From sequence record OR437326.1: a stretch of 64,000 bases of DNA, one strand, 5' to 3'. Both the position numbers and the translations under genes were made by a program. The notes beneath the pieces were generated by a model. The model was not told the origin of the DNA. It did not search any database and was given only the letters and a program-made list of their open reading frames with translations. Origin of the DNA: Escherichia phage iGC_PHA_EC001. Positions 4,872 to 59,177 of the stretch are shown piece by piece; positions within the stretch are counted from its first letter, which is position 1; the number at the start of each line of letters is the position of its first letter.

Positions 4872-5505
4872 TTTTAATATCCTCTAAAGATGCTTTATAT
4901 TCTTCCCAGTTAATCCCGATAGCAGCTTCTTTCTCTTCTTTTGTCAGATTAGCAAAAGGCATAGGGTTGTTTCCAAAAACATCGTCTGGGTGGATATAAG
5001 CCATGATACGAAGTGGACAAGGTGTTGCCTGAATACCATGATTCAAACCAGCAGCTTGCAAACGGTGTCCCCATTCAGCATCTTCAAAACCATAGCCGTG
5101 AGTGTAAGGACGGAAATAACCCATCTTCTCAACAACGGCACGAGAATACATTGCAAATTGACACATTGCAAGTTCCCAGAGAATAACTTCTCCTTTGCTT
5201 CCAACAACTTTATCTTTGAAATACTCCGGCATACCAAAGAAATCCCATCCTCCAGAGACAGCTTGATCTACAAAGTATGTTTCCCATCCCTCCATGACTG
5301 GGTAGCAATCGTCGTCAAAAATAAACCAATAATCATAACCTTCTTCATAAAACTGGTGCATAAGTTCATTCCTGGCATAAGCTACACCTTTACGATCTGG
5401 ATCGTTGAATACTCGAAAATCTGCACGTGGATCTGTTACAAGGTAGTCTTTAAGTGGACGGACACCTACAGTGATAACACCCACTCCAATTTTAATATTT
5501 TCCAT
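4822..5505 (-). CDS. glycosyltransferase family 2-like (GT-A fold)
   Basis: DYWFIFDDDCYP (DxD-type motif) and HGYGFEDAEWGHR motif typical of GT-A galactosyl/glucosyltransferases. Confidence 0.6.
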   Translation of the reverse strand: MENIKIGVGVITVGVRPLKDYLVTDPRADFRVFNDPDRKGVAYARNELMHQFYEEGYDYWFIFDDDCYPVMEGWETYFVDQAVSGGWDFFGMPEYFKDKVVGSKGEVILWELAMCQFAMYSRAVVEKMGYFRPYTHGYGFEDAEWGHRLQAAGLNHGIQATPCPLRIMAYIHPDDVFGNNPMPFANLTKEEKEAAIGINWEEYKASLEDIKNGKIRISYEEALAHVK

Positions 5506-5513
5506 TTTCTCTC

Positions 5514-6077
5514 CTAAATAGTTTTACTGTGATCATGACAGTGTAATAAATGATGTATAGACCGTTGAGGATTTGTTTGACCTAATCTGTAAATGTGAAA
5601 CAGATACATTCCCCGCATCAATCCTAACCTCTTTCCTTTTTCATGTAAAGTGCGAGAGAAAATTAAGTCGAATTGGATAGATTTTTCTTCGAAAGGAATT
5701 TCATTCCACAATGATTTTCTAAAAAGCAAGAAGAAACCTGCCAGAGGTGTTCCGAAAGGAACTTCTTCAACACTCACTTTATGATATTCTCTTGCAATCT
5801 TAGCATATTCTATATGGTTTAGAATATCTGGATCATCATTAATTTGGTTAGAGAAAAGCTGATAACCACTGCCTAACCTGTTACAAGTTGCACCTATTAC
5901 ATCAAAAGGCGGGTTTGACATAACAAGCTCTTCAAGCATAGATGGTTGATCAGGTAGGAGGAACATTGTATCGGTATCTCTTAAACACACCCAACTATCA
6001 TCTGGAAGAACGGCAATGGCTTCATTGATAGCCTTGCCGATATTTCCTGTCAGATAGGGAGTAATATAATAAATCAT
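5514..6077 (-). CDS. putative nucleotide-sugar glycosyltransferase (GT-A-like)
   Basis: N-terminal YYITPY..N.G..NEAI..D.W..LRDTDTMF pattern reminiscent of GT-A Rossmann-like start; weak. Confidence 0.4.
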   Translation of the reverse strand: MIYYITPYLTGNIGKAINEAIAVLPDDSWVCLRDTDTMFLLPDQPSMLEELVMSNPPFDVIGATCNRLGSGYQLFSNQINDDPDILNHIEYAKIAREYHKVSVEEVPFGTPLAGFFLLFRKSLWNEIPFEEKSIQFDLIFSRTLHEKGKRLGLMRGMYLFHIYRLGQTNPQRSIHHLLHCHDHSKTI

Positions 6078-6094
6078 TCTCCCCCTCCGTTATA

Positions 6095-6286
6095 TTAACT
6101 GTCAGCTACAATCCCACGTTTAATCATTTCTTGTTGAATCTGGATCACACGATCTCGTGCTTCCATATATTCTTTAAAAGATTCTTGGAGATGGTCACGG
6201 GCTACGTCCCGTAGTTTAATCAGTTTGTCGTTTGTCACTTCTTGAAGAGAGATCTCGCCAGTTTCATTGGTCCCAAGCGTTTTCAT
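6095..6286 (-). CDS. hypothetical protein (63 aa)
   Basis: Small ORF in array. Confidence 0.4.
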   Translation of the reverse strand: MKTLGTNETGEISLQEVTNDKLIKLRDVARDHLQESFKEYMEARDRVIQIQQEMIKRGIVADS

Positions 6287-6542
6287 TTACAACCTCCTTA
6301 ATAGCTACTGCACAGTTCTTACAAATACATTGACCTTTGTTCTTAGAAATTTCAATGTAAGGTTCATTTTCGTTTTCTCCGCGTCGTGAGTCGTATATTA
6401 CTGTATTGAAGCAGACAACGCAAATGTTTTTAATAACGACATATTTTTGCACTTTCTGTTTAGTGCGAAAATTGACTTCAATGACTTCTCCCATCAATGA
6501 ATCTCCCCTAAAATGTTGTTTTGAGACATTACTGCGGAGCAT
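6264..6542 (-). CDS. hypothetical Cys-rich protein (92 aa)
   Basis: CVVC..CICKNC spacing suggests zinc ribbon. Confidence 0.45.
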   Translation of the reverse strand: MLRSNVSKQHFRGDSLMGEVIEVNFRTKQKVQKYVVIKNICVVCFNTVIYDSRRGENENEPYIEISKNKGQCICKNCAVAIKEVVNENAWDQ

Positions 6543-6778
6543 TCTACAGCATCATGAGTCCTTGCAAAACGCTCCCACAACACAGCATCTACTTTAAGAA
6601 CCATACAAGGATAAATACTGTCGTTGATCATATCAATGCTATATTTATCTACATCCTTTTCATCTTCCATAAACAAAGTAGCGTATGCTTCTAAATGCTT
6701 ACGGGTGTAGTATACATCCTCTTCAGTAAGACCGACAACCAGGTAACTTGCTACAACAACAGTATTATCTTCTTGCAT
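6494..6778 (-). CDS. hypothetical protein (94 aa from refined start)
   Basis: ORF-track ORF 6494..6841 trimmed to Met22 (MQEDNTVV) which has RBS aaggggag and abuts the upstream stop. Confidence 0.45.
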   Translation of the reverse strand: MQEDNTVVVASYLVVGLTEEDVYYTRKHLEAYATLFMEDEKDVDKYSIDMINDSIYPCMVLKVDAVLWERFARTHDAVECSAVMSQNNILGEIH

Positions 6779-44935: not shown

Positions 44936-44965
44936 AAGGGGCGCACTAAGCGCCCTTTCTTTTTG
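44936..44965 (+). terminator. rho-independent terminator (repeated family, copy 3)
   Basis: aaggggcgcactaagcgccctt followed by tctttttg. Confidence 0.65.
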
Positions 44966-45926
44966 CCTGAATAATGTTGATAGATTCCGCCTATGGAAAA
45001 CAGACACAGAACAAAACTGAATAAATAGCGGTATCAAGCTAATCAACCATTAAACGAATAACCATACCTCCCAGGGTAACAGGCTGTTAGAGAGCCATTT
45101 ATAGCGGTTAAAATCGATCAACAACCAACAACAAACCATCAAAAACACCCTTTTACCTCCTTTCTAGTGCAATGATAACCATTATCATCTATCCATGTTT
45201 ATCTATGCAATATAAGTGCATAACTATAATGTTGATAATAGTTCGCAACAACTAACTAACCAACAACCTAAAACAATAAGCAAACTAATCATAATCAAAG
45301 GAATAATAGCAAGATGATTGATAACGACAAACAATCAAACCATGATGAATACTAAGCAAGATAACGATAACACGACAAAACAACCAACTAACGAACAATA
45401 ACAAACGAAACCATTAAAATAATAACTATTAGCAAAATAGTGCCTGAATGAAATCATTACAAAACGAATCATTCCCAGGATCATCATTAGCACGCTATGC
45501 CGGACACATAGCGAGCTAATAATAAGCCAACTACACCCCAACAATCATAACCATCGGTGATGGTTATTTCTTGTTACTGCGTAGCTTGCAATAATTGCAA
45601 GCGTAATGACGCTTACACTTATTGCGCTGGCTTATTATTAGCATTATATGTAATTACCAAGATCATAACATTAGCGCAATAACAATAATCATTGTAGTAA
45701 TTACAAGATGAAATCATTAGCAAGATGAATAATTGCACGTAGCAACATGAGCGAATAGCGACAGGTTGCATAGTGTGCACATAGTGTATAAACATACAGG
45801 AAAATAAAGGCTAATCTTTTGGGGGCGAATACTATCGCGTAGCGATATGTTGAGCATCTTCTCTTAAACGTAAATAAAATCAGAAAATTCTTGATTTATT
45901 TTAGTTTTTATGTTAATAAACGTTTA

Positions 45927-45948
45927 AATAATAATCATTCTCATATAA
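45927..45948. promoter_or_regulatory. Fur-box-like palindromic motif, copy R1
   Basis: aataataatcattctcatataa. Confidence 0.3.
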
Positions 45949-46105
45949 ATAATAGTCTGCTTGTCATGAGCGGGATCAGTTGACAATGTTCCGTCATATG
46001 ATGAGGTTGCCAAACCATTGATAAATAAGTGTTTGTGTGATTTATAATCAAGTGGCCCACCTTGTCGCTACGTTGGCATGAGCCTTGCATAAGTCATTGA
46101 ATACG

Positions 46106-46127
46106 AATGATAATTATTCTCATTCGC
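46106..46127. promoter_or_regulatory. Fur-box-like palindromic motif, copy R2
   Basis: aatgataattattctcattcgc. Confidence 0.35.
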
Positions 46128-46466
46128 ATGATATTTGGGAATTGTCGCTGCGTGGACCTGACGGCCCGAAAATTCGCGTTAAGCACTTCTTACGTATGCG
46201 CCATGATTTTTTGCCATATGATATTGATTCTATTAGATATTCTTGCCATGATTGCCATGAAACAGGGTGTGTCGAAATAATCTCTCCCCGTAGATATTTT
46301 GGGTTACTTTTTATACAAGAGTGGGGTGTCAAAAATAATCGGTATATATGGGATAATTGATAGGAATCCCCTATGATAATTCTATTGTAATTCCCTAAGA
46401 TCGATCGTATGATGTTGGTGATTGATGATTGCCATGAAAGATGGCTAACGATGAGAGGAGATTATC

Positions 46467-46871
46467 ATGCAAGAGAGTAAAAATGTTCCGTTGAGTAGTG
46501 CAGAATTGATTCGATTCTACAAAGCATGGATGGCTGATCACTTCAGCATGGATCGCACGAAGAATGGTCTGTGCACTTGTCTTGTAAATTTCCTAGCCTC
46601 AACACTACAACCTGAAAACCCGACAGAGGATCAATGGATAACCTACTTAAAGATACGTAATAAGATTGTAAGAGAGATGAAATCTCAATTTCTTTGTGCT
46701 AACCTGTCTTATGTCTTTCCATTTAATATGGGCTTCCAAGATTATGAAAATGAAGTCAAACACAAAAGGTGTCATGAAAACCAACTACGTGTGCAATGGG
46801 TTAAGGACAGAATTGAAGATTGTTTGAATAATTATGAGGATGTGTTATGCGAACAAAACAAATCTCGTTAA
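46467..46871 (+). CDS. paralog family A member 1 (FY..W..../GLC/CHxN/WVKD signature)
   Basis: LIRFYKAWMADHF..NGLCTCL..PFN..CHENQLRVQWVKDRIEDC. Confidence 0.6.
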   Translation: MQESKNVPLSSAELIRFYKAWMADHFSMDRTKNGLCTCLVNFLASTLQPENPTEDQWITYLKIRNKIVREMKSQFLCANLSYVFPFNMGFQDYENEVKHKRCHENQLRVQWVKDRIEDCLNNYEDVLCEQNKSR

Positions 46872-47212
46872 GTAGTACAATGTTGTTGATGTTTTATAAA
46901 AGGTGGTTGGAAGGAGATACTTCCCTTAATCGCACAGAGCACGGGTTGTGTTTATGTATTAATCATTTTGTGCGAAGTCATTATGCAAAGGATGTGCATA
47001 GTCCCAGATGGTATGATGACATGGCGAACAGCTTGGTATATGAAATGCGCAAGCAATTTGAAGAAGCTGGTCTTTGTGCTATTAATCCATTTAACAAAGA
47101 ATATGCAGATTACTTCTTTGAAGTTGAGAACAAAATGTGTCATCTGAATCCGCTTCGCATTCAGTGGGTGAAAGATCGCATTGAAGATGCAAATAATGCT
47201 TGCATTGAATAA
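46847..47212 (+). CDS. paralog family A member 2
   Basis: MFYKRWLEGD..HGLCLCI..NPFN..CHLNPLRIQWVKDRIED. Confidence 0.6.
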   Translation: MRTKQISLSSTMLLMFYKRWLEGDTSLNRTEHGLCLCINHFVRSHYAKDVHSPRWYDDMANSLVYEMRKQFEEAGLCAINPFNKEYADYFFEVENKMCHLNPLRIQWVKDRIEDANNACIE

Positions 47213-47262
47213 AGATGTTTGTATAATGGATGACATAACAGATAGCCAATGAGGAGATTGAA

Positions 47263-47472
47263 ATGTCAAATATGAAAACTGTATCCTTGTATTTAGCTAA
47301 CACGGATCGTGTGCACACCCTTGCTAATGCAAGTCGTGTACTCGTGCAGTTCCGAAACTTTGCACCGTCCGTTGTGACAGGCAGTGAAACGTGTGTTATC
47401 GATTTCATTAACGAATACTTCCGAGGGAATCCGGTTAGTCGTTACTTTATTAAGGGTCTGAAGGATGCATAA
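47263..47472 (+). CDS. hypothetical protein (69 aa)
   Basis: ORF-track ORF, RBS gaggag. Confidence 0.5.
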   Translation: MSNMKTVSLYLANTDRVHTLANASRVLVQFRNFAPSVVTGSETCVIDFINEYFRGNPVSRYFIKGLKDA

Positions 47473-47473
47473 T

Positions 47474-47695
47474 ATGAAACGCATGAAAATTCGTATTGAG
47501 AATGATGGTGGTTATAAAGGATTGGCACATGCAAAATTTCCACTTGTGCTGGAAGCTACTGTGGAATACAGTGGGCTTGCGCATGTGCGATTCTCGAAGA
47601 TGATGGAAGTGCAGGAATGGTTTTGGGACGAGATAGATGCACGAGAAGGGGAAGATTATGTTTTCTTTCCTCATGAATATAACATTATCTATTAA
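47474..47695 (+). CDS. hypothetical protein, paralog pair B (copy 1)
   Basis: Trimmed to MKRMKIRIEN; paralog of 51415..51636 (MKIR(I/V)..FP/IPFV(L/V)EA..W..E...DYVFF..E.N). Confidence 0.5.
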   Translation: MKRMKIRIENDGGYKGLAHAKFPLVLEATVEYSGLAHVRFSKMMEVQEWFWDEIDAREGEDYVFFPHEYNIIY

Positions 47696-47707
47696 AGGTT
47701 GTGTGCA

Positions 47708-47947
47708 ATGATCACACCACAACAGAATGAAGCAGCAATGGATCTTCTTGATAGTTTGTATTTCGATAATTGGTACTCTGAATGTGAATGGATGAATATG
47801 CAAACTCTGAAAGAGAAGACAGAAGCGTTGATTACAGTAGATCAATTTCTTGCAGAGACGGAAAGAATGAATTATGATATGGCATCTCGCGCACGACGCG
47901 TTTCCATTTTCAATAAAATGTTAGCATTATGGGGAGGTAGAAAATGA
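47708..47947 (+). CDS. hypothetical protein (79 aa)
   Basis: Trimmed to MITPQQNE. Confidence 0.45.
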   Translation: MITPQQNEAAMDLLDSLYFDNWYSECEWMNMQTLKEKTEALITVDQFLAETERMNYDMASRARRVSIFNKMLALWGGRK

Positions 47948-48405
47948 GACAATTCACTATACTGGCAGCTTATGTGCAATGTGTTCACGATTATGTTAGT
48001 GCTCATACAGGTTTGCTGGAAGTTAATAGTAAAATTGAAGGCAATATGGGTACTGTCTGTGTGCAACATACTTTATCCAATGTGCCGTTTAAAGTGTTCA
48101 CTGTTGTAGCTGCCGATTACAATCGTGTAGATGTGCGTTTCTTGGATCATAATTTTCGTAACGCACTAGATAATATCGAAGATTATCTTCCCGTGAAACC
48201 TTTGTCATTTCCACCGAGTCGTGCAAATAATGTAGTGACAAACCTTAATGAAAGGAATGTGGCTATGCATAAAAAAGTCCGTCAACTGAAAACACTGATG
48301 GAAATGCAAGAAGAGATTGAAAAAGAACTGAAAGAAGATTTTGGTATGCTTCCAAAAGACGCTTTGAAATGGTATGATGAACTAGGAGGAGAAAGTTATG
48401 AATAA
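47944..48405 (+). CDS. hypothetical protein (153 aa)
   Basis: ORF-track ORF. Confidence 0.5.
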   Translation: MRQFTILAAYVQCVHDYVSAHTGLLEVNSKIEGNMGTVCVQHTLSNVPFKVFTVVAADYNRVDVRFLDHNFRNALDNIEDYLPVKPLSFPPSRANNVVTNLNERNVAMHKKVRQLKTLMEMQEEIEKELKEDFGMLPKDALKWYDELGGESYE

Positions 48406-48592
48406 AGGAACTACTGTATATTTAGTAACAAAGAATACCCCAGGCTGGAGCCAATGCAGCACTGTCCCTTACAAGATCTGTGCAACATTAGAACTAGCAC
48501 AACGTGCAGAAGCAGAAGTGGATGCCATGCAATACAGCTATGGTGAGATCATTCCTTTTACTCTTGAACAAGAAGGAGCACATCATGTTTAA
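48398..48592 (+). CDS. hypothetical protein (64 aa), related to C-terminal half of MFK family
   Basis: TTVYLVTKN..CSTVPYKICATLELAQRAEAE resembles C-terminal module of 48585..49040 and 49046..49504. Confidence 0.45.
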   Translation: MNKGTTVYLVTKNTPGWSQCSTVPYKICATLELAQRAEAEVDAMQYSYGEIIPFTLEQEGAHHV

Positions 48593-49040
48593 AGTAGGGT
48601 TTACTTATAAATTCAAAAGCGTTGCTGACCAAGGAGATATGGCAACACATGGCAAAGCAAATATTGCTGTTTGCCAAGCGATTGGAAACGAAGTTTTCAA
48701 AGTTATGAATACAGATGATAAGTATGGGCATGTTCTTGAGTTTTATATCAATGGTACCCTCTATACAGCAGGTGTTACCCCAGGGTTTAATTCGTATACT
48801 TATTTGATTGATAACGAAGAATTTAAATATTTTGAAGAAGTAAAGGAGGAAACAATGGGTAAAGCAGAACCACAGTGGCACGTTGTGATCGTAGAATCAG
48901 AGTGTGTAGATGTTTGTTCTAGTTTTGAAAAAGCTTCTGAAGTCGCTACAAAAGCTAAGAAGGCTTATCCGTCTTCGACGGTTGAGATTTACGCTCGTGT
49001 TGCAGTAGCAAACACCACAACCACTATTGATAAGGAGTAA
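48585..49040 (+). CDS. MFK-family protein (tandem paralog 1 of 3)
   Basis: Trimmed to MFKVGFTYKF (RBS agaaggag). Confidence 0.55.
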   Translation: MFKVGFTYKFKSVADQGDMATHGKANIAVCQAIGNEVFKVMNTDDKYGHVLEFYINGTLYTAGVTPGFNSYTYLIDNEEFKYFEEVKEETMGKAEPQWHVVIVESECVDVCSSFEKASEVATKAKKAYPSSTVEIYARVAVANTTTTIDKE

Positions 49041-49045
49041 AGCCA

Positions 49046-49504
49046 ATGTTCAAAGAAGGTCATGTCTACCGTTTCCAGGATGAAGATTATATGCGACTAT
49101 ATTCTACCTTTGATAACAGTATTGCTGCTATCATTGGAGAGAATTTTTTCGAGGTGTTGAGCACTGATGCAAATGGTAATATCTTGTCAATGGTTGTAAT
49201 AGGTATGAGAGACGGTATTATCACTGCTGGTGACGGGGATCGTTACATAATCAATTCTGCTCATATAGATTATTTTGTTGACGGTGGTATTCGCGGTGGT
49301 CGTGGAAAACCCCAAGAAGAACCTGTTGATACAACAAAAGAAGAGTGGTATGTTGTAATGACTGATGACACCTGTATTTCTGGATTTGAAAGTTATGAAG
49401 AAGCTTTGAAAGAAGCAGCAGAGCATAAAATGGCTAATCCTACAGAAGAGGTTGAAGTTTATAAACGTTTGGTTGTTGCTACCATCGGCGTATCTTTTGT
49501 TTAA
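49046..49504 (+). CDS. MFK-family protein (tandem paralog 2 of 3)
   Basis: MFKEGHVYRF..; C-terminal EWYVVMTDDTCISGFESYEEALKEA matches paralog 1. Confidence 0.55.
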   Translation: MFKEGHVYRFQDEDYMRLYSTFDNSIAAIIGENFFEVLSTDANGNILSMVVIGMRDGIITAGDGDRYIINSAHIDYFVDGGIRGGRGKPQEEPVDTTKEEWYVVMTDDTCISGFESYEEALKEAAEHKMANPTEEVEVYKRLVVATIGVSFV

Positions 49505-49516
49505 AAGGGGAATGTT

Positions 49517-49954
49517 ATGTTTAAAGTTAATGCTGTTTACTGTTTCAAAACTAAAGCTGCCCGTGAAGCTTTCTCTATGATCTCTGATGAAAATTTCAAA
49601 ATGGCAGCTTTGATTGAAGGGTCTTGTTTCCGCGTCGAAGATGTTAGTGAATCAGGCTCTGTTTGCTCATTGACTTTATTGGACAGCGGGGATATTATTG
49701 AAGCTGGACAGTATCCGTTCAGAAGTTGGGGGATGTTGTTAGCTCGCGGAGAGCGTAACTTTTTTATGTGCGTGTCTGCGGGGGAAGTTGTGAAAGAAAC
49801 TAAGGATGTTTCTGTTTACAATTCTGAATTTATAAGTTATAGTGAGTATCAACATCTGGAAGGCATTGTTGGTCACTTGTTATCTCTGATTGACATTGAA
49901 TGTGACCTGCCTGAATCATTGAAAGAAGAGTTGAAAGCATTAGATCTGTTATAA
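49517..49954 (+). CDS. MFK-family protein (tandem paralog 3 of 3)
   Basis: MFKVNAVYCF.. N-terminal signature. Confidence 0.5.
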   Translation: MFKVNAVYCFKTKAAREAFSMISDENFKMAALIEGSCFRVEDVSESGSVCSLTLLDSGDIIEAGQYPFRSWGMLLARGERNFFMCVSAGEVVKETKDVSVYNSEFISYSEYQHLEGIVGHLLSLIDIECDLPESLKEELKALDLL

Positions 49955-49981
49955 TGTTTCGCACAACGAAAGGAGAATAAG

Positions 49982-50281
49982 ATGAATCTGACCGAACAGT
50001 TACGCCGTATTGCAAAAGAAGCTTCCTTCAACTTCCCTGTTGAAGAAGTGATCGAGACATGCTTTGCTGAAGCACGAGCGGGAAACTCTTCAAGAAATTT
50101 CACGCCATCTGATTTTGGTCTGAATAATTCTCCCACCCACCCAGAGCAGATCTACAATCAGGTGAAGTGGATGGATGAAGCAGTAGCAATTCTTCGTGAG
50201 CGTGGGCTTATTGTTTATAAAGAAATGGATCTGAACGGGGCATACGAGTGGATCACTATTGATTGGTCCGAGGTGAAATGA
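49982..50281 (+). CDS. hypothetical protein (99 aa)
   Basis: ORF-track ORF. Confidence 0.5.
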   Translation: MNLTEQLRRIAKEASFNFPVEEVIETCFAEARAGNSSRNFTPSDFGLNNSPTHPEQIYNQVKWMDEAVAILRERGLIVYKEMDLNGAYEWITIDWSEVK

Positions 50282-50514
50282 TGAAAGGTAACAAGATGAA
50301 AGTTAATCAAGTGCCTAGCGCATACACTTTGTGGCTTGCGCGAGCGTTACACCAGACGATCAAAGACCCTAAGAAGCCAATGAAGAGTGGGAAGAAGTTT
50401 ATGTCTAAGGGCAAAACAACTTTTGGCTTCACTCGTATGTCTGTTAAGATGAAAAGGTTGGGGTACAAGCCAAACTACGCTCGTTACCCTTCCGAATACA
50501 ACTGGTTTGACTAA
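50278..50514 (+). CDS. hypothetical basic protein (78 aa)
   Basis: ATGA-coupled start; K-rich. Confidence 0.45.
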   Translation: MMKGNKMKVNQVPSAYTLWLARALHQTIKDPKKPMKSGKKFMSKGKTTFGFTRMSVKMKRLGYKPNYARYPSEYNWFD

Positions 50515-50527
50515 AAGGAGAAAGACT

Positions 50528-50704
50528 ATGGCTACTTTTCAACAACTGAAAGATGTTTCACGTTTAGTAAGAAAAATCCGAGAAGCAGACGCTGCTGTGC
50601 GGAATGCATTAACGCCAGCAGAGCGTGAAGATCTTGAAGAGGAGGTGAAAACAGCCGAGAATGCTTTTGCTGTGTATCTTTCAACACTGTATACAGGAGG
50701 TTAA
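50528..50704 (+). CDS. hypothetical protein (58 aa)
   Basis: Trimmed to MATFQQLKD with RBS aaaggagaaag. Confidence 0.45.
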   Translation: MATFQQLKDVSRLVRKIREADAAVRNALTPAEREDLEEEVKTAENAFAVYLSTLYTGG

Positions 50705-51019
50705 ATGTCAGAAGAACTTAAAGAATTTTATCAGGCATATCATAACTGGCTGTTAGCTGGTGCTCCAGATAATAATCCTTTCTGGCATGATAAAGGATTA
50801 TGTAGTTGCCTCTACCTTTGGACTGGAGGTTATGATGATCTAAATTATGAAATGCAAATGCAATTCCGTGAGGCAGGATTGTCTGAAGAATACCCGTTTG
50901 ATGAAGGAGACTGGTTTAAATATGATTTTGCACAAAGAAACGGGCTATTGCATTTGAATGCTGCCCGTATAAAATGGGTAAAAGACCATGCTACACAGGA
51001 GGATGTGCAATGCCAATAG
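50705..51019 (+). CDS. paralog family A member 3
   Basis: EFYQAYHNWLLAGAPDNNPF..KGLCSCL..YPFDEG..LHLNAARIKWVKDH. Confidence 0.6.
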   Translation: MSEELKEFYQAYHNWLLAGAPDNNPFWHDKGLCSCLYLWTGGYDDLNYEMQMQFREAGLSEEYPFDEGDWFKYDFAQRNGLLHLNAARIKWVKDHATQEDVQCQ

Positions 51020-51210
51020 TGTTTAGTTTCTTAGTAATTGTTATGATTGTTCTTTTCGCGGCATGGCTTTGGGATTTTGACCCAGGAGCAGCGCAGCAAA
51101 GAGCTACAGACTGGAAAGAACAATGTATTGTGCTCAAACATGAACGAAATGCGGAGAAATTTCTTGACCTAGAGTGTGATCGCCTTGTAAGATACAAGCA
51201 AGATAAATAA
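51010..51210 (+). CDS. small membrane protein (66 aa)
   Basis: Trimmed to MPIVFSFLVIVMIVLFAAWLW (TM helix), RBS aggagg. Confidence 0.45.
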   Translation: MPIVFSFLVIVMIVLFAAWLWDFDPGAAQQRATDWKEQCIVLKHERNAEKFLDLECDRLVRYKQDK

Positions 51211-51212
51211 CC

Positions 51213-51413
51213 TTGAGGTGCAAAATGGTAATTGAGATTAAACTTGAATATGCTGGGGCTGTTGCCCTGATCGCACAAATGTTGGGAGCAAAGATTGAAG
51301 AAGTGTGTATCAATGCCTGGAGTGTAGAGATTAATGTTCCTATGGATAACATTGCTAATCGCTTGCTGGTAGCAGAGTGTGAACGCACCAACATAATCTA
51401 CAAAGGAGCATAA
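51213..51413 (+). CDS. hypothetical protein (66 aa)
   Basis: ORF-track ORF. Confidence 0.45.
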   Translation: MRCKMVIEIKLEYAGAVALIAQMLGAKIEEVCINAWSVEINVPMDNIANRLLVAECERTNIIYKGA

Positions 51414-51414
51414 T

Positions 51415-51636
51415 ATGAAAATTAGAGTTTGTGATGTATTGGGTTATGTTGGTTTTGAGAATGTTCAGATTCCTTTTGTTGTTGAAGCACATCTTGTTAG
51501 CGATGACATGACAACATTCTTTGTTACGATAGAAGAAATGTCCAAAGTTGAGGGATGGGAGTGGTTTGAAGAAGATGTTTGGGAAGGTTGTGATTACGTA
51601 TTTTTCTCTGATGAAGTGAATGTTCTTTCGGAGTAG
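51415..51636 (+). CDS. hypothetical protein, paralog pair B (copy 2)
   Basis: Paralog of 47474..47695. Confidence 0.5.
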   Translation: MKIRVCDVLGYVGFENVQIPFVVEAHLVSDDMTTFFVTIEEMSKVEGWEWFEEDVWEGCDYVFFSDEVNVLSE

Positions 51637-51638
51637 GT

Positions 51639-51845
51639 ATGTCTCGTTTTACAAAAGCAGTGTCCATATGTAAGAAACAGTATGAAAGTGATTACGGAAT
51701 ATTTAATATTCCAGTGGATCATACGAAGTATTGTTCATGTGGTGGCAGAATGAAGAAAACAGTGATTTATGCGGATAGTGGAGACGAACTTGTTCCGGTT
51801 ATGGTTTGCAAAGCTTGTCATTCTGTTAAAACATTAAAAGCGTAA
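51639..51845 (+). CDS. hypothetical Cys-rich protein (68 aa)
   Basis: C..C....CSCGG..and CKACH pairs suggest zinc ribbon. Confidence 0.45.
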   Translation: MSRFTKAVSICKKQYESDYGIFNIPVDHTKYCSCGGRMKKTVIYADSGDELVPVMVCKACHSVKTLKA

Positions 51846-53691: not shown

Positions 53692-53964
53692 ATGAATAAA
53701 GATCGGTTTCTTTCTTTAGTCGCGGAAGCGCCTTTTGATGTTCTTGGGGTGAGATTATGGAAAGACAGAAACTATGGGTTAGATGTTCAAACATACTCTC
53801 TTTGGTTGGTTGGGGAGCACAGCTTAGATGAAAGCTTGTGCATGGGTAGGGATTCTCGTTCCCTCTGTTTAAAGTTCAGAAGCTTAGAACGCGCAAACAA
53901 AGAGCAAGAAAAACTAACGAGGTGGCTAAATGAAAACAAGCGCAAGGTTGATGGAGTTTTATAA
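53692..53964 (+). CDS. hypothetical protein (90 aa)
   Basis: ORF-track ORF. Confidence 0.5.
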   Translation: MNKDRFLSLVAEAPFDVLGVRLWKDRNYGLDVQTYSLWLVGEHSLDESLCMGRDSRSLCLKFRSLERANKEQEKLTRWLNENKRKVDGVL

Positions 53965-54256
53965 AATTTATCTAGCATGGATTGATGTTGGTGCTCCTGA
54001 TGGTAAACCTTTTCGGCGGGATTGCGGTTTGTGTGCCAACTTATTCGACTATGTGCACGCGGATGGCTACAATCCCCTTATAACAACCTTGTCAGATGAA
54101 ATGCACGCACAGTTTTACCACAAAGGGTTGAGTCAAGAATTACCCTTCAATGAGAACTACGATGCATATGTCTTAGAATCAGATGCAGAGGTATGTCACC
54201 TGAATGTGGACAGGATTAATTGGGTAAGAGATTGTATTGCAGAGGAGGATGAATAA
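53930..54256 (+). CDS. paralog family A member 4
   Basis: EFYKIYLAWIDVGAPDGKPF..CGLCANL..LPFNEN..CHLNVDRINWVRD. Confidence 0.6.
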   Translation: MKTSARLMEFYKIYLAWIDVGAPDGKPFRRDCGLCANLFDYVHADGYNPLITTLSDEMHAQFYHKGLSQELPFNENYDAYVLESDAEVCHLNVDRINWVRDCIAEEDE

Positions 54257-54478: not shown

Positions 54479-54697
54479 ATGATCATGTGGATTGTGCGTC
54501 TTAAGTATGATGGCAAGTTTCCGTGGGAGAAAGATGTTTGTGCTTGTGATTCGGCAGCACATGCCAAAGCAGCGGGTCAGGCAGTAGTTGACATGTATAA
54601 CAACACTTCCGTTGATCCAGAAATGGCAGGTGTTACAATGAGCATGTTCACTTACTATTCTTTTGAGGTTTACTATCATGAAGGAGAGTGGAAATGA
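54479..54697 (+). CDS. hypothetical protein (72 aa)
   Basis: ORF-track ORF. Confidence 0.45.
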   Translation: MIMWIVRLKYDGKFPWEKDVCACDSAAHAKAAGQAVVDMYNNTSVDPEMAGVTMSMFTYYSFEVYYHEGEWK

Positions 54698-55014
54698 GCG
54701 AAGAACTATTAACATTTTACCGCACGTATTTGGCATGGTTGGAAGCTGGTGCTCCTGAAGGCGAACCGTTCACCCGTTGCACAGGTTTGTGCTCGAACCT
54801 CTATGATTTTTACGATATGGGTGAAAGCGAACGATACGAACCCGTACTGGATGAAATGCATGAACAGTTCTACCACAAAGATTTGGTTATGGTGTTGCCT
54901 TTCAACAGTAATTTTGGAAAGTACACCTTAGAAGCGGAAAAAAGCCGTTGTCATTTGAATGTGGATCGTGTGAACTGGGTAAAAGAACGTGTAGCAGAAG
55001 AAATAAATAGTTGA
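54694..55014 (+). CDS. paralog family A member 5
   Basis: Trimmed to MSEELLTFYRTYLAWLEAGAPEGEPF..TGLCSNL..LPFNSN..CHLNVDRVNWVKE. Confidence 0.6.
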   Translation: MSEELLTFYRTYLAWLEAGAPEGEPFTRCTGLCSNLYDFYDMGESERYEPVLDEMHEQFYHKDLVMVLPFNSNFGKYTLEAEKSRCHLNVDRVNWVKERVAEEINS

Positions 55015-57132: not shown

Positions 57133-57555
57133 ATGAAACAAGAAAATGAATCTGTAGATCACTTAATCATGCTGTCAGCCCTTTTTGCCGGATGGGACGT
57201 ATTTTTTGAAAATTTGTTCAATTCTGCTACAGATGGTTCCGATTTTATGCGCCAGTTTAAACGACGAACTGTTGAGGACTATGCTTTCTATTCAGGTCTG
57301 ATTGAAAAAGGTTACGAAGATACAAATACAACACTCACCATTAAAGTTTTAGATGTGATGTTTAGTGTTATAGATGCTATCGACGAAAGTCTTCCGATCC
57401 TAGACAATTGTAATACGAAAGCCTATGTTTACAAAATAGCTCGTGCTTATGTGTCTGCAAACAGTTGTCTTCTTTCCACCCAGATTGCCGTGAACAATCT
57501 TGCCAACTTGTTCGATGAAGGAGAAACTTTTTATGACAATCGATTTGAAGTGTAA
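57133..57555 (+). CDS. hypothetical protein (140 aa)
   Basis: ORF-track ORF. Confidence 0.5.
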   Translation: MKQENESVDHLIMLSALFAGWDVFFENLFNSATDGSDFMRQFKRRTVEDYAFYSGLIEKGYEDTNTTLTIKVLDVMFSVIDAIDESLPILDNCNTKAYVYKIARAYVSANSCLLSTQIAVNNLANLFDEGETFYDNRFEV

Positions 57556-57898
57556 GAGGATTCTTTTAGATTTCTATAATAATTGGTTAGAACACCTCCG
57601 TCTCTTTCCAAGAGAAAGTGGTTACGCTGATGTTGGCTTATGCCGAGGTCTACGTATGTATATAAGTGATGAATTTCGGGCTGAGCATTCTTTAGCATAT
57701 TCTGTTTATGGTATGCAATTAGCCAGTTTTGAAAACGCTGGCTTAGATACAACTTTCCCATTTAACACAGCAAAATCTTTTGAGCAAGAGTGTAAGGAAA
57801 AACGTTGCATGTTTAATGAAAAACGTGTACAGTGGGTTAAGGATCAAGTTAAACAACTGGAACAAGAGTTGGATTTCTTCTATGATGAGGCAGAATAA
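57533..57898 (+). CDS. paralog family A member 6
   Basis: Trimmed to MTIDLKCKRILLDFYNNWL..VGLCRGL..FPFN..CMFNEKRVQWVKDQ. Confidence 0.55.
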   Translation: MTIDLKCKRILLDFYNNWLEHLRLFPRESGYADVGLCRGLRMYISDEFRAEHSLAYSVYGMQLASFENAGLDTTFPFNTAKSFEQECKEKRCMFNEKRVQWVKDQVKQLEQELDFFYDEAE

Positions 57899-58787: not shown

Positions 58788-58793
58788 TAGTTG

Positions 58794-58815
58794 CACCCCG
58801 TTCTGCGGGGTGTTA
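58794..58815 (+). terminator. terminator hairpin
   Basis: caccccg-ttct-gcggggtg then ttattg. Confidence 0.5.
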
Positions 58816-58838
58816 TTGTATATGTAAAGGAGGCGCTA

Positions 58839-59177
58839 ATGTATTACACTGAAGACTACATACTGTATAACTTTTTTAAAGGTTGGTTGAAATGGGCGGA
58901 ACAAGCTCCTGTCGGAGATTGTGTTTTTCCTTGGGATTCTCGTCAAGGTTTGTGTCGTTGTTTGGAAGATTGGCTTATAACCACAAACTACAATTCAGAA
59001 ACTAAGAAATCTACATCAAACAGATTAAAAATGTTATTTGAAGAAGATGGTTTAGATCCAATTTATCCTTTCGGTGAGGAAAGTTTCCACAATGGTCTTT
59101 TCCTTGGCACTCAACATTATGATAAAGATCGCGTAGATTGGGTAAAAGAAAAGGTAGCACAGTATGAATGGGGTTAA
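58839..59177 (+). CDS. paralog family A member 7
   Basis: Trimmed to MYYTEDYILYNFFKGWLKWAE..QGLCRCL..YPFGEE..DKDRVDWVKE, RBS aaaggagg. Confidence 0.55.
   Translation: MYYTEDYILYNFFKGWLKWAEQAPVGDCVFPWDSRQGLCRCLEDWLITTNYNSETKKSTSNRLKMLFEEDGLDPIYPFGEESFHNGLFLGTQHYDKDRVDWVKEKVAQYEWG

Follow-up and report, generated by a model that had tools for sequence, protein, structure and literature searches.

Three small, adjacent genes in the genome of an E. coli phage all begin with the residues MFK. Are they the products of a recent triplication, and to what family of proteins do they belong? The genes lie in a stretch of 64,000 nucleotides (the window), and the phage is a Phapecoctavirus: an E. coli myovirus like phAPEC8, with a genome of ~150 kb. 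An earlier note on this DNA explained them by recent local duplication and domain shuffling in an early region, an assignment of the locus that is itself presumptive. We think it likely that the three genes belong to the phage GoF/Frd.2/MotB.1 family and lie in a plastic locus, that they are old paralogs, and that the locus is a cassette array with breakpoints at a shared start motif and with chimeras.

The three genes are indeed present, on the plus strand among other small genes that are tightly packed and run the same way, and we call them M1, M2 and M3. M1 (48585-49040; 151 aa) has an N-domain (residues 1-86; 48585-48842), an acidic linker that is of low confidence in the model (residues 87-96), and a C-module (residues 97-151; 48873-49037). 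M2 (49046-49504; 152 aa; phrog_3710 at 2.4e-33) has an N-domain (residues 1-80; 49046-49285), then a Gly/Pro/Glu linker, and a C-module (residues 98-152; 49337-49501). M3 (49517-49954; 145 aa) matched phrog_22975 at 6e-97, phrog_622 at 3e-10 and phrog_3710 at 6e-7. Its N-domain (residues 1-88; 49517-49780) is followed by a C-terminal tail (49781-49951) that is unrelated to the C-module of M1 and M2, and M3 had no match to the C-module HMM. Each of the three has a Shine-Dalgarno motif and the start ATGTTYAAAG, a sequence that occurs exactly three times in the window, always at these starts. The array is bounded by a 153-aa gene on its 5' side (47944-48405, plus strand; phrog_14944) and a 99-aa gene on its 3' side (49982-50281, plus strand; phrog_15686), each directly next to it in 14 of 14 related loci. 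A scan for sigma-70 promoters found 34, against 29.3 +/- 5.5 expected from shuffles, and so was not above shuffles. Among orthologs pN/pS was 0.11-0.44. Because of these values, the Shine-Dalgarno motifs and the tight packing, we take M1, M2, M3 and their neighbours to be real genes; M2 was in 59 phage records.

We found that M1, M2 and M3 are one family, as had been claimed, with an N-terminal domain of ~85 residues in common. By BLASTP, M1 and M2 share 27% identity across 151 aa (60 bits). M3 is marginal (26 bits to M1) and had no BLASTP match to M2, as might be expected if the MFK resemblance were due to chance or to N-terminal convergence and there were no true family. It is extremely improbable that this is so. 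A leave-out HMM, made from 30 family members that are each at most 35% identical to M1, M2 or M3, gave 61.5 bits for M1, 58.9 for M3 and 48.3 for M2. The next-best of 374 ORFs in the window scored 5.3 bits; that is, there are exactly three copies in 64 kb. Independent PHROG profiles agree on the family: 3710, 622, 5347 and 5804 match all three proteins, always from residue 1.

The C-module shared by M1 and M2, also pointed out earlier, held up in alignment (Smith-Waterman score 94 against a shuffle mean of 24.8, with 0 of 2000 shuffles reaching 94), and that of M2 scored 75.6 bits with the C-module HMM. It is a beta-beta-alpha-beta unit of ~55 residues. ClpS was considered as its identity and rejected: only 44-45 residues align, about half of ClpS, the adaptor fold of which has a full core of ~80 aa with an N-degron binding pocket, and the C-module lacks a sequence-profile match to it. 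A search of Pfam gave no ClpS match and only a weak one to DUF7336 (E 0.0037, below the cut-off), and there was no match among PDB sequences. As a small alpha/beta motif, the C-module also looks like SPOR and other folds.

The short ORF in front of M1, s48398 (48398-48592, plus strand; 64 aa; phrog_24303 at 2e-44), was said to carry the C-module as well. It overlaps both of its neighbours, the upstream gene at its 5' end and M1 at its 3' end, and its pN/pS was 0.11 among 8 orthologs. We take s48398 to be a real gene but, at the level of sequence, not demonstrably a copy of the C-module. Smith-Waterman scores to the C-module were 18-24, the same as the shuffle mean of 22. The C-module HMM gave -0.5 bits, with 222 of 868 scored shuffles equal or better, and hhalign gave a probability of ~0.1-0.3%, even with a 42%-identical homolog added. 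That homolog is upstream of the array in a distant contig, L017. We also weighed whether s48398 is a stand-alone and very diverged C-module with homology visible only at the level of the fold. Its AlphaFold model has only the order strand, strand, helix, with which the C-module also begins; the gene immediately precedes the array and comes and goes with it, as a whole unit, among relatives; and L017 has two more genes of 58-62 aa beside the homolog, with a similar 'S/T-x-EEA' helix start. Given the shuffle-level scores, this origin seems unlikely to us: the pLDDT of the model is low (57.6), a hairpin loop of ~14 residues would stand against one of 2 in the C-module, and 'S-x-EEA' is no more than a generic helix N-cap.

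Several comparisons connect the N-domain to a family known from T4. In record LR597654, M2 is annotated as 'goF mRNA metabolism modulator of RB69' and M3 as 'RNA metabolism moderator of RB51', and goF-annotated PHROGs were matched weakly. An HMM made from 39 N-domain sequences, of which the leave-out HMM is a version, gave 57.2 bits to T4 GoF (hhalign 98.5%, E 1.8e-15, residues 3-96), 33.5 bits to T4 Frd.2 (hhalign 95.4%) and 17.3 bits to T4 MotB.1 (hhalign 89.4%). The T4 controls MotB.2, Frd.3 and Cef had no score with this HMM and 0.2-0.3% by hhalign. The AlphaFold model of M1 (pLDDT 84.9; below 50 at linker residues 89-94) has an N-domain of five strands plus helices and a separate C-domain. 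The predicted N-domain is an SH3-type barrel, a five-stranded bent antiparallel beta-sheet (SH3/LSm-like) for which FeoA-type SH3 proteins are the nearest solved structures. The sequences also follow the family plan of N-terminal domain, flexible linker and variable C-terminal domain: acidic or Gly-rich linkers are visible, and the C-termini of M1 and M2 differ from that of M3. Foldseek against viral models gave 74 matches at E <= 1e-3. Those bearing names were mostly T4-like phage proteins, and all the named ones were uncharacterised.

Was the array made recently? Adjacent genes on the same strand with the common start ATGTTYAAAG are what a recent in-situ triplication of one MFK gene would leave. 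We nevertheless consider such an event very unlikely, and with it a recent segmental duplication of the neighbouring gene pair (below). The paralogs are 25-44% identical at the protein level. At the nucleotide level the window had no self-similarity between M genes or between B genes (below); in the self-comparison, which had been suggested as a check, the relationships were seen only between proteins (M1-M2, 60 bits; B1-B2, 48 bits). Identity at third codon positions between paralogs was 37-44%, and the best off-diagonal nucleotide HSP was between two genes of another family (A1/A2, 70% over 70 nt). Each N-domain was nearer to relatives in other phages than to its own array: with N-domains only, M2 scored 62 bits and M3 72 bits to proteins from elsewhere (P0026 and P0032), against 34 bits for M1-M2. 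A neighbour-joining tree, itself unsupported, put M1, M2 and M3 with different outside relatives. In addition, the order of the array recurs in the distant contig L017, where the s48398 homolog is followed by a double-domain gene and then by one like M3. Because the paralogs have no DNA similarity, have closer relatives outside and are matched by a syntenic array in L017, we conclude that the array is old. As judged from sequence, M1, M2 and M3 are paralogs that diverged long ago and have stayed next to one another; they did not arise by a recent triplication. The local paralogy and the domain shuffling in the earlier account therefore stand, and its "recent" does not.

The gene pair tells a similar story. 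B1 (47474-47695) and B2 (51415-51636), both 73 aa and on the plus strand, are paralogs as proposed: they are 38% identical over 71 aa (48 bits), and phrog_15322 matches both over their full length (at 1.2e-41 and 2.5e-44). Their pN/pS values were 0.12 and 0.15. B2 is in 14 of 14 related loci, and B1 is absent from phage anhysbys and from L015. By tblastn, family B was mainly in Stephanstirmvirinae-type phages, usually with two copies in Phapecoctavirus and one in Justusliebigvirus. B1 and B2 appear to be a separate, old two-copy family restricted mainly to Stephanstirmvirinae.

Each B gene was said to follow a member of family A (phrog_2510), and an A gene upstream of each is what a duplicated A-B segment would give. 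There is an A gene upstream of each, although not directly. A1 and A2 (46467-46871 and 46847-47212, plus strand; 6e-21 and 2e-23) are tandem and overlapping, and are separated from B1 by one unrelated gene (47263-47472, plus strand; phrog_6496). A3 (50705-51019, plus strand; 6.6e-29) is separated from B2 by two unrelated genes (50974-51413, plus strand; phrog_15662 and phrog_26355). The first intervening gene had no similarity to either of the others (50974-51210 and 51213-51413). Nor are A2 and A3 mutual nearest paralogs. The nearest to A2 is A1 (43% identity, 94 bits), and the nearest to A3 are 53930-54256 (42%) and 54688-55014 (38%). At the position of A1 and A2, the number of copies in related genomes is 1, 2 or 3. 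With seven copies of family A in the window, all within 13 kb, a nearby A gene is expected. From the sequences compared, the proximity of A and B reflects gene-family density and not a duplicated block, and the segmental duplication is not borne out.

What does change among close relatives is the number of genes in the array. We compared the architecture of 14 related loci and found from 1 to 4 GoF-like genes per locus, the copy-number variation that the earlier note had suggested looking for. Whole gene units (s48398, M1, M2, M3 and D, a 261-aa gene with two N-domains) were gained or lost between genomes that are otherwise 92-98% identical. The window, dw-ec, ASO2A and anhysbys have s-M1-M2-M3; ECO340P1 and ESCO37 have s-M1-M2-D-M3; phAPEC8_ev052 has M2-D-M3; TSP7_1 and ZCKP1 have s-M2-M3; SKA64 and ESCO5 have M2-M3; and L013, L014 and L015 have a single M1N+altC gene. 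In the phage collection at >=80% coverage, M3 was in 61 records (61 of 61 matching), M2 in 53, s48398 with M1 in 19 and D in 17. That M1, M2, D and even M3 are each missing from some of these loci suggests that a phage can do without any one copy.

Among the junctions that were read, a subset of those in these loci, the breakpoint coincided with ATGTTTAAAG, the start that the genes have in common. The s48398 3' end of ZCKP1 and TSP7_1 continues directly into ATGTTT|AAAGAAGG, the body of M2. The spacer at the end of M2 is identical before D (ECO340P1) and before M3 (window), and in genomes without s48398 the end of the 47944 gene is directly before M2 or M1N. No PeSL-like promoter/terminator motif was detected at the studied region. 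Breakpoints at start codons could reflect survivorship and need not mark a recombination hot spot, because only indels that keep genes intact persist.

Domains were shuffled as well, in agreement with the earlier note. The phAPEC8 protein phAPEC8_0024 joins the N-domain of M2 to the C-module of D at a KPQEEP linker, and another chimera, on 22 contigs, joins the N-domain of M1 to a different C-module (P0012). A third form, with the N-terminus of B and the tail of D (P0017), was on a single 1.3-kb contig with 0.75x coverage and may be an assembly artefact.

We propose that M1, M2 and M3 are built from an N-terminal SH3-type barrel, a flexible acidic linker and an exchangeable C-terminal part, and that whole gene units enter or leave the array. 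Copy number may change by unequal or illegitimate recombination, for which the short homology in the paralogs' conserved ribosome-binding site and first codons could be the substrate. Recombination in the linker would give the chimeric N/C combinations.

The founding member, T4 GoF, has a decades-old and unexplained genetic link to Rho and mRNA stability. The GoF/Frd.2/MotB.1 proteins are prereplicative (early) and non-essential in the laboratory; wild-type GoF and MotB.1 had little effect in a reporter assay, and only the GoF D25Y mutant stabilised RNA (Kim et al. 2025, PMC12152347). By analogy, M1, M2 and M3 would be abundant, non-essential, prereplicative accessory proteins. The common barrel might bind RNA or a host protein while the variable C-terminal part diversifies the output; modulation of mRNA stability, as with GoF(D25Y), is a plausible example.

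SH3, Tudor and FeoA domains are usually protein-protein adaptors. It is possible, if somewhat doubtful, that the barrel is such an adaptor and not an RNA binder, and that the array is a set of diversifying effectors directed at host proteins (anti-defence or takeover), with copy-number variation as an arms race. A GoF pull-down recovered mainly GoF itself, there were no PADLOC matches, and selection on the orthologs is purifying and not diversifying (pN/pS 0.11-0.44). A more speculative notion, which we think improbable, is that the array is a modular effector toolkit, with an SH3/LSm-type 'handle' and swappable C-terminal modules (ClpS-like alpha/beta, with stand-alone relatives such as s48398). 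The ribosome-binding site and ATGTTTAAAG would then be a built-in recombination site for swapping, stacking (the double-domain gene) and dropping cassettes, which would tune host takeover or counter-defence to E. coli strains.

Returning to the GoF-family cassette array that we favour, three genes so far called 'hypothetical', in a genus much used for phage therapy, can now be placed in the GoF family, which extends beyond T4-like phages. Genomes with 1-4 genes, the chimeric N/C combinations and the double-domain form are natural variants for experiments. Cassettes that come and go at a coding-start motif give a modest but concrete illustration of turnover in the hyperplastic regions of large phages. 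These are new members of a known family, locus plasticity of this sort is already familiar, and the results establish no new principle.

The array is best compared with three kinds of known system. The first is fold relatives. Identity to FeoA and to the C-terminal SH3-like domain of DtxR/IdeR (CATH 2.30.30.90) is only 5-15%, with no sequence-profile link; this likeness, seen in models, is one of fold and not of family membership. [quoted passage not shown] The second is that T4 family itself. Here as there, a homologous N-terminal barrel of ~85-95 aa (by profile and hhalign), with FeoA as the nearest solved fold, leads into a flexible linker and then a C-terminal domain that varies, and several paralogs per genome (two of the T4 genes are <=1.5 kb apart) are small genes amid a block of hypothetical genes. 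[quoted passage not shown] The third is PeSL-mediated shuffling in T4-type hyperplastic regions (Arbiol et al. 2010, PMC2839356; Comeau et al. 2014, PMC4122927). In those phages too, gene-sized cassettes are reported to come and go or to be replaced between near-identical genomes, with the exchanges at short conserved motifs that flank small genes of unknown function. There the motif is a promoter-stem-loop, whereas here the paralogs have their ribosome-binding site and first codons in common (ATGTTTAAAG).

We found that three adjacent genes on the + strand, M1 (48585-49040), M2 (49046-49504) and M3 (49517-49954), belong, as new members, to a known phage family and that they lie in a plastic cassette locus. 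The earlier note had described them as related, and profile comparisons bore this out. In a protein-level self-comparison (BLASTP), M1 and M2 were 27% identical over their full length (60 bits), M1 and M3 aligned over 85 residues at only 26 bits, and no match was seen between M2 and M3. PHROGs 3710, 622, 5347 and 5804 each matched all three proteins from residue 1. We also used an HMM built from 30 family members, each at most 35% identical to M1, M2 or M3, that came from an exhaustive HMMER search (61 cluster representatives) and excluded the three proteins and their close relatives. This leave-out HMM scored M1 at 61.5, M3 at 58.9 and M2 at 48.3 bits; the next-best of the 374 window ORFs scored 5.3 bits. 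Because of this gap, we conclude that the 64 kb contain exactly three copies of the N-domain (the N-terminal ~85 residues). Orthologs are under purifying selection (pN/pS 0.11-0.44).

Word-indexed homolog searches returned close relatives almost exclusively, and a PDB sequence search with the MFK profile gave chance matches only. Among the 61 HMMER representatives, several very long repeat proteins that align to no more than profile positions 42-80 were treated as spurious. In P0028, P0029, P0051, P0055, P0059, P0069 and P0070 (899-3266 aa), the match to the GoF-like profile is confined to positions ~33-81 and recurs in 5-16 stretches, which is probably a chance likeness to a repeat motif.

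The AlphaFold2 model of M1, made from a 9-sequence alignment, is confident (pLDDT 84.9) and has two domains: an N-domain of five strands and three helices, a disordered linker, and a beta-beta-alpha-beta C-module. [quoted passage not shown] 2025; PMC12152347). PHROG matches to goF were weak. Against our family profile, the T4 proteins scored 57 (GoF), 33.5 (Frd.2) and 17 bits (MotB.1), with hhalign probabilities of 98.5%, 95.4% and 89.4%, respectively; their T4 neighbours MotB.2, Frd.3 and Cef gave no score. Based on these matches, we place M1, M2 and M3 in the GoF/Frd.2/MotB.1 family. Foldseek against viral models gave 74 matches at E <= 1e-3; the named ones are for the most part T4-like phage proteins, all uncharacterised. 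Functional data in the family are limited to T4 GoF(D25Y), probably a gain-of-function mutant, which stabilises an mRNA; neither wild-type GoF nor MotB.1 has much effect (PMC12152347). Unlike the T4 proteins, M1, M2 and M3 sit in a different phage subfamily, and the M1/M2 C-module has no counterpart among the T4 C-terminal domains.

The C-module is the ~55-residue C-terminal part that M1 and M2 were said to share. They do share it (Smith-Waterman score 94, shuffle mean 24.8, with 0 of 2000 shuffles reaching 94), and M3 lacks it. The module had also been reported in the short ORF s48398 (48398-48592, 64 aa). This ORF is a real gene (phrog_24303 match; pN/pS 0.11 across 8 orthologs), but its resemblance to the C-module does not exceed background. 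By Smith-Waterman it scored 18-24, equal to the shuffle mean of 22; the C-module HMM gave -0.5 bits, with 222 of 868 scored shuffles equal or better; and hhalign gave a probability of ~0.1-0.3%, which did not improve when a homolog on a distant contig (42% identical) was included. The AlphaFold model of s48398 is poor (pLDDT 57.6), and its predicted strand-strand-helix order is compatible with the C-module without being diagnostic. On that distant contig (L017, 339-886), the s48398 homolog is followed by two genes of 58-62 aa, just upstream of a double-domain GoF-like gene. These two genes have a similar strand/helix pattern and an 'S/T-x-EEA' motif, and neither has significant similarity to the other or to the C-module.

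The duplications are old, and the earlier view that they were recent is wrong. A nucleotide self-comparison of the window found nothing for the M genes or for B1 and B2 (below); the best off-diagonal match was between the family A genes A1 and A2 (70% over 70 nt). Third-codon-position identity between paralogs in protein-guided alignments was 37-44%. Every M copy has an N-domain closer to some protein outside this genome than to its array siblings: N-domain-only scores were 62 bits for M2-P0026, 72 for M3-P0032 and 42 for M1-P0047, and 34 and 26 bits for M1-M2 and M1-M3 within the array. A rough neighbour-joining tree (no support values) placed the three apart. P0032, an M3-like protein (43% N-domain identity), is encoded on contig L017 directly downstream of a 258-aa double-domain gene, with the s48398 homolog further upstream. 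Because so distant a contig carries all three, the array and its neighbour must be old.

The locus is polymorphic among relatives. The region has matches in 126 phage records (80-99% DNA identity), led by ~150-kb Phapecoctavirus genomes (subfamily Stephanstirmvirinae), of which phage dw-ec is the closest (96.9%). We scanned 14 related loci with profiles (10 GenBank phages, the window and 3 metagenomic genomes) and read the architecture from one conserved flanking gene (47944-48405) to the other (49982-50281). The order s48398-M1-M2-M3 was found in the window, dw-ec, ASO2A and anhysbys. ECO340P1 and ESCO37 have s48398-M1-M2-D-M3, where the D gene (261 aa) combines two N-domains with one C-module, and phAPEC8_ev052 has M2-D-M3. 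TSP7_1 and ZCKP1 have s48398-M2-M3, SKA64 and ESCO5 have M2-M3, and loci L013, L014 and L015 have just one gene, in which the M1 N-domain is joined to a different C-module. Thus, the copy-number variation looked for in related genomes exists: the locus holds 1-4 genes and 1-5 N-domains between flanks that are 92-98% identical. Among records of the phage collection at at least 80% coverage, M3 was found in 61, M2 in 53, s48398 plus M1 in 19 and D in 17; M1 orthologs at at least 90% identity were present in 23 of 54 matching records. A second variable spot lies between the 99-aa gene and A3 (50281-50705), where relatives have one to four extra genes that the window lacks (e.g. dw-ec 5219-5973 and phAPEC8_ev052 5486-6714, locus coordinates).

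The surrounding genes (46467-51845) are small, all on the + strand, and each preceded by a Shine-Dalgarno motif, with intergenic gaps of -46 to +50 nt. GenBank labels are 'hypothetical' in nearly every case, the exception being phAPEC8_ev052, where the M2 ortholog is 'goF mRNA metabolism modulator of RB69' and the M3 ortholog 'RNA metabolism moderator of RB51'. In the literature searched, we found no description of these genes in phAPEC8-like phages. No gene reached the Pfam cut-off (weak matches were to FRD2, DUF2782 and DUF7336), PADLOC found nothing relevant, the 64 kb contain no tRNA or tmRNA genes and no Rfam families at gathering threshold, and the promoter and terminator scan did no better than shuffles. 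Upstream of the array, gene 47944-48405 (153 aa) is annotated 'transcription-repair coupling factor' in SKA64, probably an over-annotation, since its sole support is a Pfam TRCF match (E 0.061) far below cut-off. Just upstream of the block, a strong bidirectional terminator-like hairpin (44936-44958) is followed by ~1.5 kb without convincing ORFs (44936-46466), and several related-phage GenBank records start inside this stretch. It could contain early promoters or lie close to genome ends. GC skew switches from negative to positive near 30 kb of the window.

Family B has two members in the window, B1 (47474-47695) and B2 (51415-51636), and their proposed paralogy holds (38% identity, 48 bits, full-length phrog_15322 match in both). 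B1 is absent from anhysbys and L015; B2 is in every locus examined. ZCKP1 has two adjacent B-like ORFs (1836-2274) and no match there to the 47263-47472 gene family. The 'EGWF' chimera P0017 suggested that family B might be a degenerate form of the GoF N-domain, an idea that was rejected (hhalign 0.5%). Family A (phrog_2510) is represented by seven diverged genes in 13 kb: A1 (46467-46871), A2 (46847-47212), A3 (50705-51019), 53930-54256, 54688-55014, 57500-57898 and 58791-59177. Its invariant positions include G-L-C, P-F and R..WV; it has no Pfam match, and a PDB search with its profile gave chance matches only. Copy number in the upstream cluster is 1, 2 or 3 among related genomes, and in L014 one ORF fuses A and B. 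A family A gene does lie upstream of each B gene, as noted earlier, but not adjacent to it: one gene (phrog_6496) separates A2 from B1, and two (phrog_15662, phrog_26355) separate A3 from B2. These intervening genes are mutually unrelated (different PHROGs, no BLAST similarity), and the nearest paralog of A2 is A1, whereas those of A3 are 53930 and 54688. A duplicated A-B block thus finds no support. Of the earlier interpretation, paralogy and shuffling stand; recency, the segmental A-B pair and the s48398 module do not.

In the junctions read, the breakpoint lies at the shared start ATGTTTAAAG, a 10-mer found in the window only at the starts of M1, M2 and M3. In the window, M1 follows the 3' end of s48398; in ZCKP1 and TSP7_1, this end continues into ATGTTT|AAAGAAGG, the body of M2. 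The M2-end spacer is identical before D in ECO340P1 and before M3 in the window, and where s48398 is absent the end of the 47944-48405 gene directly precedes M2 or the M1 N-domain. Two robust chimeras reveal recombination between paralogs inside genes, in support of domain shuffling: phAPEC8_0024 (M2 N-domain fused to the D C-module within the KPQEEP linker) and P0012 (M1 N-domain and another C-module, on 22 contigs). P0017 (B N-terminus and D tail) was discounted as a third, being on one 1.3-kb contig at 0.75x coverage.

We infer that copy number changes by unequal or illegitimate recombination at short homology, namely the conserved ribosome-binding site and first codons. It is possible that breakpoints are seen at starts through survivorship of intact genes, which could give the same pattern. 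By analogy, the M proteins may be early, dispensable accessory factors, with a barrel that would bind RNA or a host protein and a C-terminal part that would vary the outcome. In function, the proposed recombination at gene starts would resemble the PeSL-mediated shuffling of T4-type hyperplastic regions (PMC2839356, PMC4122927).
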